Shown: positions 17,781-37,101 of the stretch, piece after piece
Position numbering within the stretch: the stretch's first letter is position 1
Layout: every line of letters begins with the position of its first letter
Source of the DNA: an uncultured Verrucomicrobiae bacterium
GTDB lineage: Bacteria; Chlamydiota; Chlamydiia; Chlamydiales; Rhabdochlamydiaceae
Length of the DNA: 64,000 nucleotides
Direction: 5' to 3'
Assembly (NCBI GenBank): GCA_963818965.1
Contig: CAWFUG010000009.1
Span: 98,212 to 162,211, forward strand
Notes under the pieces: generated by a model
Told to the model about the DNA's origin: nothing
The model's input: the letters and a program-made list of their open reading frames with translations, nothing else
Database searches by the model: none
Program-made: the position numbers and the translations under genes

Positions 17781-18672
17781 ATCCCCCCTATTGCCCCTGT
17801 GGCAATCCCTTGCGTGGATCATCGCCTCGATCTTCTTCGTGACAGGGCCGAGTTATTTAGGATTCAAATGGACCCTTGAAAAGAGAAGAGAGGCCTTGCG
17901 CAACCCTCAATTTGCGATCCGCTGGATCATCCAAACAGGTCCCCAGAGACAGGCCTTAACGACAGAGTGCCTCGCAGAAATCCTCCAGCTCTCAGCAGAC
18001 CATCCTGAAAGCTCGAAAAACTTCGATCTCAAACGCGCAGAGCAGCGCTTAGAAACCTGCCCTCTCATCGCCTCCTCTCAATGCAAAGTCGTCGCACCCG
18101 ATGCGGTTTTCGTCGACTACACCGTGCGCCAACCGATCGCCTTCTTAGAGGATTTTGAAAATGTCGCCATCGATAAGGAGGGGTATCCCTTTCCCTTTGC
18201 CCCATTTTTTTCTCCCAAAAATCTCCCCTCGCTCTACTTGGGAGTCCACGATGCAGCGGTTGAAGGAGAGCGCCCCCAAGTACAGTGGAATACCCCCCTC
18301 TTTGGGAAATCGTTCGCCCTAGGCGATGCCCTTCTCAAGATCGTCACCGCACCAGAATATAGGGACCAATTCCACGTCCGCCGCATCGATGTCTCGAATG
18401 CCTTTGCAGAGAGCTATGGGACGCGCGCCATCGTGCTTCTCACCGAGGATTTTCTCATCCAAGGGCAAACTCACTACATTTTACCGCGGATTTTGCGTTT
18501 GAGCACCAAGAACTACGCCCAAGAGCTCGCCAACTACCTACAATTGCGCACAGAGTGGCTCGAACGGGAGCGCCAGAGCCTTCCCCGTTCTTCATTAGAG
18601 AAGGGAGAGATCACTCTCAAAGAAAAAATCATCGACCTGCGCATCGAGCAGCTCGCCTTCGTCGAAGGATGA
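17767..18672 (+). CDS. ftsQ: FtsQ-like cell-division protein (single N-terminal TM segment)
   Basis: Trimmed to the ATG at 17767 (MKRSKSPLLPLWQSLAWIIASIFFVTG). The position directly after murC is as in dcw clusters. The assignment rests on position and architecture only. Confidence 0.5.
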   Translation: MKRSKSPLLPLWQSLAWIIASIFFVTGPSYLGFKWTLEKRREALRNPQFAIRWIIQTGPQRQALTTECLAEILQLSADHPESSKNFDLKRAEQRLETCPLIASSQCKVVAPDAVFVDYTVRQPIAFLEDFENVAIDKEGYPFPFAPFFSPKNLPSLYLGVHDAAVEGERPQVQWNTPLFGKSFALGDALLKIVTAPEYRDQFHVRRIDVSNAFAESYGTRAIVLLTEDFLIQGQTHYILPRILRLSTKNYAQELANYLQLRTEWLERERQSLPRSSLEKGEITLKEKIIDLRIEQLAFVEG

Positions 18673-18841
18673 GAGGCTAGCTCATTGGAAGGGTCATCTC
18701 ATTGCGATACTTTTTGGGTCGCCCAACTGATATTTGTAATGCTGTCCCGTAACGAGATCTTGTAAGGTCGTATCCGTTATTGAACCGCACGCTGAACGTA
18801 GGTAGTGAATGCAGATATCATCTCCGTAAACTTGCCATTGC

Positions 18842-18929
18842 AATTTCACCACAGAGATGGAAAACCACAGAGAGGAAATTCATATTAAAAAATTTCCTCT
18901 CTGTGGTTTTCCATCTCTGTGGTGAAATT
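18842..18929. repeat. Palindromic repeat family B (CCACAGAG element), complete copy
   Basis: AATTTCACCACAGAGATGGAAAACCACAGAGAGGAAATT, loop CATATTAAAA, then the exact reverse complement. The 39-nt arms are perfect. Confidence 0.9.
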
Positions 18930-18960
18930 CAGCTATTTATGCAACAACGCCTGTTGCTAG

Positions 18961-21900
18961 TCAAAAGAGGGCGATTTCTAAATTCACCTTTGGGTAATCT
19001 TTATTCTCAACTTTATCTGATTTTATATGAAAAGAGCGCTCTTCAGCCAATTTTTCATTGGTGCCTTTCATTCTGAGGGATAAAGTGGGATTTCCGTATC
19101 TAATTTCCTGGAATTGTTTTACGAAATTCGGGCTTTCCTTTTTTAATTCAAAACAACTTAGGTCAATAGAGATGTTACAATTTTTTAGGTGTCGAGATCC
19201 GAGAAGGAGCGTCTCTAAGAGCCTGATTGAAGGGAGGTATTCGTAGTAAGAAAGATTTAAAGTTTTTAACTGATCCATTTCAGAGATCGTGCTTATCAAT
19301 TCACCCATACAATCGCACTTCAGTAGCCGGATGCTAAGTTCTGTACACTGTCTCAGGCGAGGAAAACGGATCTTTGTAGGATGCATCTCTACAGGAGCTT
19401 CTAGAAGATTCTGTGAAAAATGGCGCCTTGGAGGTTGTTGCGGAGTACTGCGCTTTAATTCTAGCGTGACGCCTGTAGGGGGTAATCGATCGAAAAATTC
19501 ATAGGGGGTGGTTCTCTCAATGTGAGTCATGTCAGTAAGTATGCAGATTTTAGATAGCGTTGGGGGGATCTTCAAGGAGCGTACCGCCTCCCAGCTTTCC
19601 ATGTCTTTTAGAGCAATCAGTAAATGCTGCAATTCTGGGAGCTCAGATAAAGCAAAAGTCTCAAGAGGAGGAGCCTTTCCTGAGATGTAGAGAGAAAGAA
19701 AGTGAAGGCGTGGACAGGCTTGGACTATTTTTGACCAGGCTCCCTCTGCAACGTGGGGATCTGTCTGAGTGAAGAGAGTGAGGTAACGAATATTTTGTCC
19801 GATTGCTTTCAGAAACTCTAGGGGTTTTGATTGTATAGAAAAGAGCTCGATTTCATTGAATCCTTTGAATTTTTTCAGTTTGCCTTCTTTACAGTAGACA
19901 GAAGAGCATTCATTCAGGAGAGGATGACAATTGATGGAGGCTGCCCATCGGGCAGCGGCGAGAAGGGTATCTTCCTGTAATAGCGACATTAGAAAAGCGA
20001 TTCTTGCAGCCTGGGTTCTAAGGGGGGTTAAGTCAGAGCCAAATACTCCTTTTTGAATTTCTTCCAGTGCCAGAAAGAAAGAGGGGGACAGCCTTCCCGC
20101 CTCTTGAAGCCGAATCAAAGGGACCTCGTTCTCACGGATGACATTTTCTAGGAACTCGACAGCTCTTTTAGCACTTCTAAAGGGAATCCCTTCAAAGGCT
20201 CTTCCCATTTTGCCCTCTTTGAAGATTTGAGGAGAGATTTCCATCCGTAGGAGCAATTGTAGAGATAGGGGTATAGATTGCGCCTGAGGGTACTCAATTC
20301 CGATTTCCAGAGTGTTTACGAAATCTGCATGTTCAGGATAGAACGTTTGGCAATCTTGCAGTGCTTTTTTAAGGACTTCAAAATCCAGGCTCCCTTCTTT
20401 GATCTGTCTGCCGATTGTCAGAGCGAGGTTGCTTAGAAAAAGCGTTGGTTCTTCTAAGGGCGTTTCGTTTTCTCTTTGCACAAGAAAGTAAAGAAACCGG
20501 GGGAGTTGTGCTGCGGATAACGCATGAGTCAGGGTACCACTTTTATCGGATGCGATCTTTTCAAAATATGCAGTTTCTCCTTTTAACGGCGCAGCACCTT
20601 GAGAGAGCACTGAGGCTTGAACGGATTTCCAGAAGCTCTCACATACCTCCTCTTTTCTAAGCGTGTTAAGGAAATGAGAGGCAGCTTCTTCTTTTACAGT
20701 TCCAAGGATAAAAAAAACATCAGAAGGACTCCAGGAATTAAGCGATTCTTTATTAACGGAATACGCTATGAAGTAGAGGTCCTCTATCTTTTTTTCTAGG
20801 AGCTTTTTTTCTGCTATGAGTCCTAATTCATGGCAACAATAGACATCGCAAAGAAGAAGGAGTGTTTTCTGCTGCGGCCTTGAGTAGTTGATTTGTTTCC
20901 AGTGAATCGTCGATAAAGATCGGTTGTTTTGCAAGCTTTTCAACACTCGAGTGGCGTATTTCAAAGTGGCAAATGAGGGAAGAGTGGTGATTGCAATCGT
21001 AACTGCGTATTTATTTCCTTTTTTTTGAATTAAAAAAAGGGAGCTTTTTTCTAACCAGAGCAGCACATATTCTTGTAATTCGGGACAGGGGATTGCTCCT
21101 AGGTTATCCGCAAGTGCAGCTATGTTTTCCATGGAATCGCCGCTTTTTCTAATGATCTCTTGTGCGATTAGGCTTCTTTCTGTCTCGAAGTCACTGAGGG
21201 CAAAGAACTGGATTCCCTCTAAAATTGCCCACAATTGCTCGAGAGTTTGGGCGTTGATCTTCTGTTCTCTAAACAGGTTATGGAAAAAGCCTTTCCTCTT
21301 CGCCTTGAGCAGGTCATAGAGAAAATAGAAACTTTTTGCCACATCGCCGGTTAAAACGATTTGGCTCAGTGGCTTCATGCCAGGTTTCAAGAGAGTTTGA
21401 AAATACTCGCTCTGAGAGAACATATTCCACGGGCAGATCGATAACGTTCCGATCTCTTCTAGAACGACGATCAAATGATCTTCTTTTAAGCGTTTCTGCA
21501 AATCGAAGGAATTTTCTGCGGCTTTTATAAGCTCGTTGCAATATTTGGGGTCGAGTTTCCCAATTTTAAGAAGGGTGAGTAGGTGATCGAAGAGCTCATT
21601 GCGCAGGCGAGAACTTTTCGCATCGCCATGGACAAAATGAAAGAGGCGGTACAAAGCTTCGGGAGAAAGTGCTTGCCATTCTTCGTCTATACCCTTTGCA
21701 GCAATTTTGCTGAAAAGAGCGCACTCAGCAGCGACCGTTTCAAGTGTTACTAGGTGTGGCGAGGATTCCTGTAAAGTGGGGGGCAGTGTCGCAAATAGCT
21801 GTAAAAAATCTTTTTCCTCTGAGGATGGCCAAACGGAAGCCAGGCAATAAATTGTCCTCATGCTCAATTTAGGTGACCTTCGATTTATTCTGGGAAGTTG

Positions 21901-22419
21901 ATATTCGAGAGACTGGGTGTAGAATTCTTCCAGATCGGGAATTTCAACAAGGGAGGTGAAGCATTTGAGTTCCACGAGCGTTTCGAGAGAGGCAGAGTTT
22001 ATGATTTTTGGGTCGATCAAAAGCGCAAAGGCTTCGTTGCTCAGCGATTCTATGAGATGAGATTCATAAGGGTGGGACTCTGGATGAAAGAGGAATTGCC
22101 AAAGTTTTGGTGAGATGAACAGAATCGATGTAGGTTTGATTCGCAAAGAGCGGAATCGTGGATCTTTCAAGATTGTTCGGAAGTTGTTTTTAGATAAAAC
22201 TTCTAAAATCCGCATTCGAAATTCCAGAGGAATTTCCCCTTTCTTGGCGTAATCTTTCAAAACCTTTTTGCTCTCTTTGTAGGCCAGGGCGCCTTCAAGG
22301 TTTGTGCGGTATGTTGAATAATACGCATCTTGATTTGAAGTGAGAATTGCCAACTTATCTTCCAAAATCTGAAAAAAAGAAGGGGCGGATATGCTTGTTG
22401 TGGTTGTGGCTGAGCTCAT
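18961..22419 (-). CDS. Large (1152 aa) hypothetical protein with a possible BTB/POZ-like segment and C-terminal leucine-rich (RNI/F-box-LRR-like) region
   Basis: Long uninterrupted ORF, trimmed to the ATG at 22419 because the TTG at 22518 lies inside a palindrome. DHLIVVLEEIGTLSICPWNMFSQSEYFQTLLKPGMK..IVLTGDVAKSFYFLYDLL looks BTB-like. The C-terminal IRYLTLF..CPRLHFLSLYISG..LPELQHLLIAL..LKTLNLSYY is leucine-rich. Confidence 0.6.
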   Translation of the reverse strand: MSSATTTTSISAPSFFQILEDKLAILTSNQDAYYSTYRTNLEGALAYKESKKVLKDYAKKGEIPLEFRMRILEVLSKNNFRTILKDPRFRSLRIKPTSILFISPKLWQFLFHPESHPYESHLIESLSNEAFALLIDPKIINSASLETLVELKCFTSLVEIPDLEEFYTQSLEYQLPRINRRSPKLSMRTIYCLASVWPSSEEKDFLQLFATLPPTLQESSPHLVTLETVAAECALFSKIAAKGIDEEWQALSPEALYRLFHFVHGDAKSSRLRNELFDHLLTLLKIGKLDPKYCNELIKAAENSFDLQKRLKEDHLIVVLEEIGTLSICPWNMFSQSEYFQTLLKPGMKPLSQIVLTGDVAKSFYFLYDLLKAKRKGFFHNLFREQKINAQTLEQLWAILEGIQFFALSDFETERSLIAQEIIRKSGDSMENIAALADNLGAIPCPELQEYVLLWLEKSSLFLIQKKGNKYAVTIAITTLPSFATLKYATRVLKSLQNNRSLSTIHWKQINYSRPQQKTLLLLCDVYCCHELGLIAEKKLLEKKIEDLYFIAYSVNKESLNSWSPSDVFFILGTVKEEAASHFLNTLRKEEVCESFWKSVQASVLSQGAAPLKGETAYFEKIASDKSGTLTHALSAAQLPRFLYFLVQRENETPLEEPTLFLSNLALTIGRQIKEGSLDFEVLKKALQDCQTFYPEHADFVNTLEIGIEYPQAQSIPLSLQLLLRMEISPQIFKEGKMGRAFEGIPFRSAKRAVEFLENVIRENEVPLIRLQEAGRLSPSFFLALEEIQKGVFGSDLTPLRTQAARIAFLMSLLQEDTLLAAARWAASINCHPLLNECSSVYCKEGKLKKFKGFNEIELFSIQSKPLEFLKAIGQNIRYLTLFTQTDPHVAEGAWSKIVQACPRLHFLSLYISGKAPPLETFALSELPELQHLLIALKDMESWEAVRSLKIPPTLSKICILTDMTHIERTTPYEFFDRLPPTGVTLELKRSTPQQPPRRHFSQNLLEAPVEMHPTKIRFPRLRQCTELSIRLLKCDCMGELISTISEMDQLKTLNLSYYEYLPSIRLLETLLLGSRHLKNCNISIDLSCFELKKESPNFVKQFQEIRYGNPTLSLRMKGTNEKLAEERSFHIKSDKVENKDYPKVNLEIALF

Positions 22420-22448
22420 GAGAAAATCCTTAAAAGATAAAATACGGT

Positions 22449-22628
22449 GGGTATATAGCCCTTCCACCTCAATCGTAACCACAAGCAAACCGATTAAAAG
22501 CCTCAAAATTCGAATCAAAGGTCGGGGTCAATATTGAATTTAATATTGACCCCGACCTTTGATTCGAATTTTGAGAACTTTTCATTCGGTTTTCTTGGGT
22601 ACGATTGAGGTGGAAGGGGTATATGCCC
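22449..22628. repeat. ~180-bp long palindrome (perfect 34-nt core arms, imperfect outer arms)
   Basis: Core 22502-22535 CTCAAAATTCGAATCAAAGGTCGGGGTCAATATT, loop GAATTT, then the exact reverse complement at 22542-22575. Outer arms 22449-22500 and 22576-22628 pair with a few mismatches and one indel. Confidence 0.85.
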
Positions 22629-22680
22629 AAGTGGACTCAAAAGTTGGCCCTACGGCCCACTTTTGAGTCCACTTGAGTAT
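22620..22680. repeat. Palindromic repeat family A copy, abutting the long palindrome
   Basis: TATATGCCCAAGTGGACTCAAAAGTTGGCCCTACGGCCCACTTTTGAGTCCACTTGAGTAT. Confidence 0.85.
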
Positions 22681-22770
22681 AGACTCAAATTCTCGGTAGA
22701 TGCTATACCAGAGTCGTTTTTGACATTTAGGAATTGTCCCAGGATCAACTCTAAACTTAAATTTTGAACT

Positions 22771-23001
22771 ATGAAAGACTTTATCGCTTATCTGATTAAA
22801 AATCTCGTGGATCAGCCTGACTCTGTCGATGTACAGATCATCGATGGGAACCAAGGGACTATTGTGGAAGTGCGCGTCTCTGCAGAGGACGTCGCCAAGG
22901 TCGTGGGAAAACAGGGAAGAACCATCAAGTCGTTGCGCACGATTGCAATGACAGTCGGCGCTAGGTTTGGTCGGCGCGTCCGCTTAGAGCTCGTCCATTA
23001 A
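22771..23001 (+). CDS. KH-domain RNA-binding protein (YlqC/UPF0109-like)
   Basis: 76 aa; VVGKQGRTIKSLRTI (GxxG KH motif); typical size. Confidence 0.8.
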   Translation: MKDFIAYLIKNLVDQPDSVDVQIIDGNQGTIVEVRVSAEDVAKVVGKQGRTIKSLRTIAMTVGARFGRRVRLELVH

Positions 23002-23018
23002 CAACCCTCTTCTTTTTC

Positions 23019-23096
23019 CTTCCCCTCTGTGGTTTCCCATCTCTGTGGTAAACACATTATCACCACAGAGGTGGGAAACCACAGAGGGGAGGGAAG
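23019..23096. repeat. Palindromic repeat family B copy (arms in permuted order)
   Basis: CTTCCCCTCTGTGGTTTCCCATCTCTGTGGT, loop, then ACCACAGAGGTGGGAAACCACAGAGGGGAGGGAAG. It starts 18 nt after the KH-gene stop. Confidence 0.85.
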
Positions 23097-23115
23097 CTCA
23101 GGTTAAGGAGTACGC

Positions 23116-24144
23116 GTGTCAGGTCTTGCGTTCGAAGATAAAGAGTTAAAGCTTCTCCTTCAGCATTTTGCACTCTCTCAAAAAGATCCCCTTTCCCCAC
23201 ATGCCAAAAAGAAAAAAGTGATCGTGATTGCAGGGCCAACAGCTGTCGGTAAGACGCAGTTGTCGCTCATCATCGCACGGGCAATTGGCGGGCATGTCAT
23301 CTCCGCAGACTCGATGCAGGTCTATCGGGGGATGGATATTGGGACAGCCAAAGCTTTACCCCAAGAGCGAGGGAAAATCCCCCACCACCTGATCGACAGT
23401 CGAGAAATCGATGAGACTTACAATGTCGTCGCCTTTTATAAAGAAGCGCATCAGGCAATCCAGGAAACGCTCGATAAAGGAGCCGTTCCGATCGTCGTCG
23501 GAGGAACCGGGTTCTATATCCATGCGCTCATTTACGGCCCCCCTCATGGCCCTCCCTCCGACTCAGAAGTGCGTACAGCCCTCGAGGAAGAGATGAAAGA
23601 GCTCGGCCCCGAACCGCTCTTTCAGCGTTTAAAGGAATTAGACCCTGAATACGCTCAGACGATCACCTCAGGGGATCGCCATAAGATCATCCGAGGGTTA
23701 GAGATCATCGCGCTGACGAAGATGAAGGTCTCTGAGTTGAAGACGACGACATCAGAAGCCTTAAACACTTACGATTTTCGGTGCTGGTTCATGTACTACC
23801 CCCGGGAGATCCTCTACCCGCGGATCGAGATGCGCTGCGATCAGATGATCCAGCAGGGATTTTTAGAAGAGGTCAAGCGGTTGGAAGGGGAGGGGCTCAT
23901 GAATAATCTCACGGCGTCTCAAGCGATCGGCTACCGGCAGTGCTTGGAGTACCTGCACTCTTCGCGTAGCCAGGAAGATTGGGATCGTTTTGTGACTACC
24001 TTCAAACAGGCGTCGCGCCGGTATGCGAAGCGGCAGTTCACTTGGTACCGGAAAGAGCCCCTGTTTCGTTGGGTCAATCTCGAGAAAATTCCCCTGGAGC
24101 TCTCTGCTGAGCTCATCATTCAAGACTACGAATTGAGTTTCTGA
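23116..24144 (+). CDS. miaA: tRNA dimethylallyltransferase
   Basis: GTG start; VIAGPTAVGKTQLS, SADSMQVYRGMDIGTAK. Confidence 0.9.
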   Translation: MSGLAFEDKELKLLLQHFALSQKDPLSPHAKKKKVIVIAGPTAVGKTQLSLIIARAIGGHVISADSMQVYRGMDIGTAKALPQERGKIPHHLIDSREIDETYNVVAFYKEAHQAIQETLDKGAVPIVVGGTGFYIHALIYGPPHGPPSDSEVRTALEEEMKELGPEPLFQRLKELDPEYAQTITSGDRHKIIRGLEIIALTKMKVSELKTTTSEALNTYDFRCWFMYYPREILYPRIEMRCDQMIQQGFLEEVKRLEGEGLMNNLTASQAIGYRQCLEYLHSSRSQEDWDRFVTTFKQASRRYAKRQFTWYRKEPLFRWVNLEKIPLELSAELIIQDYELSF

Positions 24145-27947: not shown

Positions 27948-29213
27948 ATGCAGCAGAAAAAACGCGTTGTTGTAACGGGAATGGGGCTCGTCTCCTGTTT
28001 TGGGACAGACATCGATCATTTTTTTGATCAACTCCTCGCTGGAAAGAGCGGAATTACCCAAATCGATAGCTTCCCTTGTCAAGATTTTCCGACTCGGTTT
28101 GCCGGTGTGGTCCGCGACTTTGACGTCGGCGATTATCTCGATAAGAAGCAGGCGAGACGGGTCGATCCTTTCATTCGTTACACTGTTGTCGCGGGGAAGA
28201 AAGCCCTGGAAAATGCACAACTGACAGGAGAGGCTCTCGATCGGCTCGACAAATCCCGCTGTGGTATCCTCATCGGCTCAGGGATGGGCGGGATGAACGT
28301 CTTTTCTGAAGGGGTAGAGGCCCTTTTAACGAAAGGATTTAAGAGAATTACGCCCTTTTTCGTGCCCTTTATCATTACGAATATGGGAGGAGCCCTTCTC
28401 GCCATCGACATCGGATTCATGGGGCCGAATTACTCGATCTCCACCGCCTGTGCAACGTCGAATTTCTCCATTTACTCTGCGGCGCAGCATATCATGCGTG
28501 GCGAAGCAGATCTCATGCTCTGTGGCGGTGCCGAAGCTTCGATTAACCCTATTGGGGTAGCGGGATTCGTCGCTTGTCGCGCGCTTTCTGAGCGCAATGA
28601 AGACCCTCAAAAAGCTTCTCGCCCTTGGGACAAGAACCGGGATGGTTTTGTCATAGGAGAGGGTGCAGGAGTCTTAGTTCTAGAGAGCCTGGAACACGCC
28701 TTAGCGCGTGGCGCACCGATTATCGCCGAATACCTCGGCGGAGGCATTTCGTGTGATGCGCATCATATGACAGATCCTAGAGCTGATGGATTAGGCGTCA
28801 GTCTCTGCATCGAAAATGCGATTAAAGAGGCGGGAATTGAAAAAGAACAAATCAATTACATCAATGCGCATGCGACGTCCACTCTCGTAGGGGATTTGTG
28901 TGAGGTGCGCGCCGTGAAGAAGATATTCGGTCCCCATGTTTCTAATCTTAAGATGAATGCGACGAAGTCGATGATCGGGCACTGTTTAGGGGCAGCGGGT
29001 GCAATCGAAGCAATTGCGGCGATCAAATCAATTGAAAGAGGCCAAGTTCACCCGACGATCAATCTCGATCATCCAGAAGAAGAGTTAGAGGGAATCGATG
29101 TTGTGGCTCATGTGGCTCAACCGCACAAAATCACAGCGGCACTGAGCAACTCCTTTGGATTTGGTGGACATAACTCAGCGCTGATTTTTGCTCCCTATGA
29201 GAGCAATCAATGA
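27948..29213 (+). CDS. fabF: 3-oxoacyl-ACP synthase II
   Basis: 421 aa; ISTACATS (active-site Cys), NAHATST, GHCLGAAG, NSFGFGGHN. Confidence 0.9.
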   Translation: MQQKKRVVVTGMGLVSCFGTDIDHFFDQLLAGKSGITQIDSFPCQDFPTRFAGVVRDFDVGDYLDKKQARRVDPFIRYTVVAGKKALENAQLTGEALDRLDKSRCGILIGSGMGGMNVFSEGVEALLTKGFKRITPFFVPFIITNMGGALLAIDIGFMGPNYSISTACATSNFSIYSAAQHIMRGEADLMLCGGAEASINPIGVAGFVACRALSERNEDPQKASRPWDKNRDGFVIGEGAGVLVLESLEHALARGAPIIAEYLGGGISCDAHHMTDPRADGLGVSLCIENAIKEAGIEKEQINYINAHATSTLVGDLCEVRAVKKIFGPHVSNLKMNATKSMIGHCLGAAGAIEAIAAIKSIERGQVHPTINLDHPEEELEGIDVVAHVAQPHKITAALSNSFGFGGHNSALIFAPYESNQ

Positions 29214-37032: not shown

Positions 37033-37101
37033 AATTTCACCACAGAGATGGGAAACCACAGAGAGGAAATTTTTAATCTGAATTTCCTCTCTGTGGTGAA
37101 A
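37033..37101. repeat. Palindromic repeat family B copy (right arm lacks one octamer unit)
   Basis: AATTTCACCACAGAGATGGGAAACCACAGAGAGGAAATT...AATTTCCTCTCTGTGGTGAAA, lying between two convergent stop codons with 15 nt on each side. Confidence 0.85.

Follow-up and report, generated by a model that had tools for sequence, protein, structure and literature searches.

The CACAGAG-rich hairpins of this stretch of chlamydial DNA (family B) are, on balance, best explained as REP/REPIN-like, non-autonomous foldback repeats, a locally expanded and gene-less population of an element family that extends across phyla. Because the same arms bracket a nuclease gene in bacteria of several phyla, the hairpins are probably the gene-less offspring of a nuclease element and not purpose-built terminators. 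A second, independent route of spread was shown directly, in which hairpins are carried as cargo of an IS5-family MITE, driven by a DDE transposase and leaving 9-bp duplications. About 140 such elements have thus invaded the intergenic regions of this genome, together with an IS5-type MITE and no fewer than two further palindromic families, and CACAGAG hairpins should not be annotated by default as terminators or regulatory sites. Neither the cross-phylum distribution of the family nor its link to GxxExxY nuclease genes formed part of the original prediction, which had described a palindromic repeat sitting after stop codons.

Anatomy and number of the hairpins

The window is the whole stretch of 64,000 nt that was analysed. 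Five copies of the repeat had been claimed in it, and all five were found at the positions given for them (Table 1). The window contains 19 occurrences of the octamer CCACAGAG, where 1.35 are expected by chance, and 17 of the 19 fall inside the five copies. The other two (at 28518 and 54899) are isolated matches in coding sequence, and therefore the window contains exactly five elements; a search of the window with the double-octamer pattern, allowing up to three mismatches, matched just these five loci.

Table 1. Family-B hairpins and attached transposon sequence in the window
Feature	Position	Strand	Description
Copy 1	18842-18929		X-loop-X', perfect 39-nt arms, 10-nt loop
MITE end attached to copy 1	18930-18951	-	terminal repeat GGCGTTGTTGC; IS5-type shell
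Copy 2	23016-23095		X'-AT-rich spacer-X; stand-alone; outer stem copy-specific
Copy 3	37033-37101		X-loop-X', right arm one 16-nt unit short
Copy 4	55763-55844		X'-spacer-X, left arm one unit short
Copy 5	62500-62644	+	IS5-type MITE, right terminal repeat lost; family-B hairpin core 62522-62593

In the arm, X, T-N-A is followed by two CCACAGAG octamers separated by an 8-nt spacer, and then by a purine-rich tail. Two arrangements of the inverted arms occur, X-loop-X' and the other order, X'-AT spacer-X, in which the arm ends are abutted. The perfect arms and short loop claimed for copy 1, each arm of which holds two CCACAGAG octamers 8 nt apart, were borne out by the sequence and by the predicted RNA fold (-68.4 kcal/mol, z -15), and the folds of the window copies as a whole lie between -33 and -69 kcal/mol (z-scores -6 to -15). 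The claimed loss of one octamer unit from the right arm was recognised in copies 3 and 5, and the opposite arm order in copies 2 and 4. Such gain and loss of arm units would fit slippage between direct octamers. The outer stem of copy 4 (55760-55844), 18-20 nt long and specific to this copy, contains the TAA with which the M50 protease gene ends. For copies 1 and 5 the description held in part: their hairpins are real, but both are parts of a larger IS5-type MITE, a shell that had been overlooked. In copy 1 the second half of the MITE is absent.

The genome is a 2.24-Mb metagenome assembly (MAG) of 12 contigs, 88% complete, and the census of the family over it was made with a crude longest-ORF gene map. 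It gave 621 octamers, grouped into 261 clusters, and 137 palindromic copies, including 48 perfect elements of the X-loop-X' form and 18 of the X'-spacer-X form, with many others one unit short. On the crude gene map 148 of the 154 multi-octamer clusters (about 96%) are intergenic. The layout of a CRISPR array was not encountered, the copies being dispersed singly as inverted pairs, and Rfam at its gathering score recognised only a tRNA in the window and nothing in ten loci of other phyla. HIP1, considered as a possible sign of cyanobacterial origin, is not markedly enriched. A tandem array of whole hairpin units with a 131-nt period is present at C9:1597-1859.

Stop codons and transcript ends

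The claim that the copies lie close to stop codons is confirmed by the ORF coordinates, which give distances of 1-31 nt for all five. Copy 1 lies 31 nt from the stop of a 1185-aa gene, copy 2 lies 17 nt past that of a KhpA-type KH gene, copy 3 is 14 nt from the stop of an 80-aa ORF and 14 nt from that of a lysS fragment (a convergent pair), and copy 4 is 1 nt past the M50 protease gene; the hairpin of copy 5 lies 24 nt past the stop of the FkbM gene, its MITE starting 2 nt past this stop. As stated in the original prediction, three copies (1, 3 and 5) sit between convergent genes. The KH, M50 and FkbM (methyltransferase) assignments of the neighbouring genes were confirmed by Pfam, in which the 1185-aa and 80-aa proteins matched no family. 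The MITE end, which carries stops in three frames, was also considered as the supplier of the gene stops and was rejected for the window copies because their stop codons lie 2-10 nt outside the element.

The bias towards the 3' ends of genes was found beyond the window as well, when the 137 copies obtained by the genome-wide pattern search were considered. They are distributed over 48 convergent, 67 tandem and 22 divergent spacers, the convergent ones being over-represented about twofold (chi-square p about 1e-7). The median distance between the end of the palindrome and the incoming stop codon is 23 nt, and 15 nt for the stand-alone copies; between tandem genes, 55 of 67 copies are closer to the stop than to the next start.

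Stop distances with medians of 15-23 nt, the stop-proximal position of those 55 tandem copies, the twofold excess of convergent spacers and very stable folds (-33 to -69 kcal/mol) all favour a reading in which the hairpins mainly serve the host as RNA elements, that is, as bidirectional terminators or 3'-end stabilisers under selection, whose repetitiveness would be incidental. The genome of the same genus, which has a canonical terminator (a hairpin, then a T-run) at the site orthologous to copy 2, also speaks for it. This explanation is nevertheless improbable. A U-tract, taken as at least 5 T in the 8 nt following the stem, was found in 15 of 126 copies on one strand and in 19 of 126 on the other (12-15%) against a background of 8.6%, and 75% of the copies have it on neither side. 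Since the U-tract is confined to 12-15% of the copies and 22 copies lie between divergent genes, the hairpins are not classical terminators; a consensus terminator scan of window positions 18000-24000 flagged none of the elements located there. The conservation of the arm sequence across phyla, where it brackets a nuclease gene, also counts against the terminator because a terminator does not require it, and so do the lack of any copy in the same-genus genome and the presence of some copies inside an IS5-type MITE. Rho-independent terminators resemble family B in having a stable hairpin just past a stop codon, often between convergent genes; the family differs from them in that it mostly lacks the U-tract, has stems of 30-40 bp and is conserved in sequence and not in structure alone. 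Of the earlier proposal of REP/BIME-like elements or bidirectional terminators, the dispersed, REP/BIME-like palindromic family with a 3' bias is retained, and the terminator as the main explanation is abandoned.

A terminator-like side effect of mobile hairpins at transcript 3' ends is plausible, given the canonical terminator at the orthologous site of copy 2. The very stable 3' hairpin that would be placed on transcripts may cause RNA polymerase to pause or to stop, or may bar the way to exonucleases, and in this manner family B may affect the 3' ends of transcripts.

The same-genus genome shares 65-80% coding identity with the present one and holds a different gene at the site of copy 2. 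After its KH gene there is an extra gene of about 110 aa, missing at the site in this genome, the translation of which appears STAS-like. In a comparison with window 18586-22762, the region of the 1185-aa gene proved to be absent from it altogether.

GxxExxY genes between the same arms

The double-octamer pattern gives 202 matches in this genome and none in the same-genus genome; among 39 other relatives, 38 had no match and one, from another genus of the family, had 7. A comparison with related genomes had been proposed in the original prediction as a test of lineage specificity, and the absence from the same-genus genome points to a lineage-specific burst. Of 201 chlamydial genomes searched with a looser hairpin pattern, 30 contained it, the present one with 146 matches and the next highest of the 200 chlamydial genomes with 47; the X'-spacer-X form is present in four other chlamydial genomes.

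When one genome per prokaryotic species was scanned with a 24-base pattern, at least 107 loci were found, compared with a computed chance expectation of about 0.1. Among the matches listed there are loci of Acidobacteriota, Verrucomicrobiota, Burkholderiales, Planctomycetota, Bacteroidota, Chloroflexota and others, and most of those listed contain three tandem (N)CACAGAG units per arm with the T-N-A flank seen here. The arms of family B fit this cross-phylum type, as they consist of at least two CACAGAG heptamers, the terminal one forming CCACAGAG by T-N-A, and a purine-rich tail. At one verrucomicrobial locus (L082:580-1100) the hairpin occurs as a tandem array of at least six units with an 84-nt period, in a genome in which PF13366 was not detected.

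In chlamydiae, in Pelomonas/Roseateles and in an acidobacterium the arms bracket a gene for an uncharacterised PD-(D/E)XK protein of about 120-135 aa, termed GxxExxY (PF13366/TIGR04256). The acidobacterial locus (L088) is composed of three CACAGAG units, the PF13366 gene and three CTCTGTG units. Twenty near-full-length PF13366 genes were examined, 19 from chlamydial relatives and the one at this acidobacterial locus, and 8 or 9 of the 20 are bracketed by CACAGAG arms, with X always to the left of the gene and X' to its right. Other PF13366 genes (L153, L155 and L141) are bracketed by GGAT-type octamer arrays, e.g., CGCGGATG; in the protein tree the GGAT-armed genes form a separate clade (99/96 support) and the CACAGAG-armed genes belong to the other. 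The earlier suggestion that the octamers are recognised by a protein would fit these heptamer arrays on either side of a nuclease gene.

Among 200 chlamydial genomes, PF13366 was detected in 24 of 30 hairpin-positive and in 38 of 170 hairpin-negative ones. The odds ratio of this co-occurrence is 13.9 (p 2e-9), or 10.9 when a family of small genomes is left out, related genomes not being independent observations. In Pelomonas caseinilytica the PF13366 gene is single-copy, and its arms also form the gene-less hairpins of that genome. The unit separates the stop codon of one gene from the start codon of its neighbour; three relatives have an empty site there, with spacers of 2-5 nt, and a fourth has the insertion too. 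From the empty sites in three relatives it follows that the unit is a true insertion, and no duplication is visible at the site. With one arm-bracketed gene and many gene-less hairpins, the cultured Pelomonas/Roseateles make the question open to experiment.

The present genome has one PF13366 match, an intact gene for 136 aa outside the window (C9:277031-277375). The protein matches TIGR04256 at 3.9e-36, retains the invariant G-x-G-x-x-E-x-x-Y motif, D67 and E77-x-K79, and falls in the CACAGAG-armed clade of the tree. Its AF2 model (pLDDT 90) is a minimal PD-(D/E)XK core; in a fold search it was weakly nearest to Cas4, RecB-type domains, lambda exonuclease and Hjc, with TM up to 0.54, as is generic for PD-(D/E)XK, and a sequence search of the PDB gave no match. 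The gene adjoins a copy of a different, GC-rich palindromic family.

On the preferred reading the heptamer arrays would be cis sites for the GxxExxY nuclease, of which this genome has kept one intact gene, and the enzyme would recognise them and mobilise gene-less copies. Cutting would take place at the arm ends or close to them, and the copies would spread without target-site duplication, as REPINs depend on RAYT. The position close to stops may then reflect either tolerance or targeting; under tolerance the copies would survive where harm is least, a few nt past stop codons.

Several observations count against this role of the nuclease. No arms were found around this genome's own GxxExxY gene, the only such gene in an 88%-complete genome. 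PF13366 was not detected in 6 of the 30 hairpin-positive chlamydial genomes, nor in a 2.3-Mb verrucomicrobial genome with hairpin arrays, and the sole gene detected in one acidobacterial MAG, which has many CACAGAG hairpins, is GGAT-armed.

The closest described system is REP/REPIN with its RAYT transposase genes (PMC3116915, PMC2817692, PMC3733652). Both are inverted doublets of short palindromic units, head-to-head and tail-to-tail, in at least 100 copies, intergenic, biased to 3' ends and lacking target-site duplication; both have, in other genomes in the case of family B, a single-copy nuclease gene flanked by inverted units, and enzyme clades that track the repeat types. In contrast, the arms of family B are made of two or three CACAGAG heptamers and not of one GC-rich palindrome of 20-40 nt, and the associated enzyme is the PD-(D/E)XK protein of about 120-135 aa (PF13366/TIGR04256). 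REP units carry a GTAG or CGTC tag at one end (PMC3733652). Two defining features of that system fail here: a search for the Y1/HUH RAYT gene (PF01797) in the genome, which is 88% complete, gave no match, and the listed copies, the arms of which begin with T-N-A-CCACAGAG, lack the tag. Enterobacterial BIMEs likewise show mosaic combination of units, alternating orientation and occasional tandem arrays, and differ in the unit sequence and the associated enzyme.

PF13366 has been described as a family of unknown function with a mixed-clade phylogeny (PMC3424549). Full-text literature on GxxExxY, PDDEXK_3 and PF13366 described neither repeats nor mobility, a full-text search with the octamer strings returned primers only, and a search on chlamydial palindromic repeats and PDDEXK mobile elements gave nothing relevant; no published account of CACAGAG repeats or of their link to PF13366 was found in the literature search. 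As a wider reading, which we regard as possible rather than probable, GxxExxY (PF13366) proteins may be the enzymes that mobilise a new class of foldback transposable elements spread over several phyla, with clade-specific ends of inverted heptamer or octamer arrays (CACAGAG- and GGAT-type) and insertion without target duplication, preferentially just past stops; family B would be its largest gene-less progeny seen in Chlamydiota. Such a class, if real, would be a functional analogue of REP/RAYT in which a PD-(D/E)XK nuclease takes the place of the HUH enzyme. Should the link hold, a testable role would be gained for the widespread family PF13366/TIGR04256 and an origin for a kind of intergenic hairpin that is common in genomes from soil and freshwater and in those of chlamydiae.

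The regular spacing and exactness of the octamers, while the spacers vary, may also be read as the mark of binding sites for a host protein acting in chromosome organisation or regulation, as REP binds gyrase or IHF, the arrays then not being mobile. This reading must be considered highly improbable in view of the patchy distribution (30 positive genomes among 201 chlamydial ones, the same-genus genome being without it), the proven insertion with empty sites elsewhere and the copies nested in transposons.

The IS5-type shell and the stand-alone copies

Many X-loop-X' copies have conserved flanks in common. These belong to a shell element of 147-178 bp with 15-nt terminal repeats beginning GGCGTTGTTGC, and about 10 of 26 shell copies are surrounded by perfect 8-9-bp target duplications. 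The 16 full MITE copies show pairwise identities of 81-97% (median 88.5%). Outside the window, at C9:266874-268009, a complete 1136-bp IS5-family element has the same ends as the MITE and encodes a 330-aa transposase (PF13737 + PF01609; NF033579, 300 bits); it is accompanied by a target duplication matching at 8 of 9 bp and is likely to be the autonomous partner of the MITE. IS903 has similar ends and 9-bp duplications. From the shared flanks, the terminal repeats and the matching autonomous element it is concluded that the IS5-type MITE carries 54 of the 137 hairpins (40%) as cargo, copies 5 and 1 of the window among them, the latter with a partial shell.

The shell thus agrees with IS-derived MITEs of the IS5 family in its terminal repeats, target duplications and matching autonomous IS. 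The hairpin, on the other hand, is cargo only, and the stand-alone copies have no such ends or duplications. The flanks of these copies, which include copies 2 and 4 of the window, are unique and their outer stems copy-specific; a target duplication (a direct repeat of at least 2 nt) was sought around 41 of the copies and was absent at 38.

A good part of the amplification here and in another chlamydial genome, G034, can be put down to DDE-type shells, which counts against the nuclease as the driving force. G034 has 67 PF13366 matches, mostly an identical derivative of about 260 bp in which CACAGAG arms and the gene's 3' third are retained. The truncated copies were considered as proof of nuclease-driven amplification and rejected as such, because they lie inside a larger element with its own terminal repeats.

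It could be supposed that the GxxExxY gene is a homing-type parasite which inserts into the loops of pre-existing hairpins, and that the hairpins themselves spread by hitch-hiking on DDE-type MITEs, by recombination or by slippage. The gene always lies between X and X', the loop position of the gene-less hairpin; the 54 cargo copies and the G034 derivative are situated inside elements with terminal repeats of their own, hairpins occur in genomes in which the gene was not detected, and tandem arrays show that copies can multiply without transposition. We consider this explanation unlikely, since neither IS5-type ends nor a duplication accompany the 18 perfect X'-spacer-X copies and other stand-alone ones, whose flanks are unique, so that a mobilising activity of their own is needed. 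Moreover, the Pelomonas empty sites, with their 2-5-nt spacers, hold no hairpin, so that arms and gene arrived together, and nuclease clade and arm type co-vary. Family B as gene-less offspring of a nuclease element, partly carried further by the MITE, is accordingly preferred.

The repeat families of this genome insert into one another. At C1:251337 a MITE lies inside a family-B hairpin with a 9-bp duplication, and a third palindromic family, the arms of which start with TATACCCCGCGCGC, is nested in some MITEs (C2:40367, C7:27759, C9:475545 and C9:330553). In the window, a 50-bp mini-palindrome at 57879-57928 consists of an unrelated 20-nt core set between the two IS5-type terminal repeats; it has no CCACAGAG and may be a minimal MITE shell.
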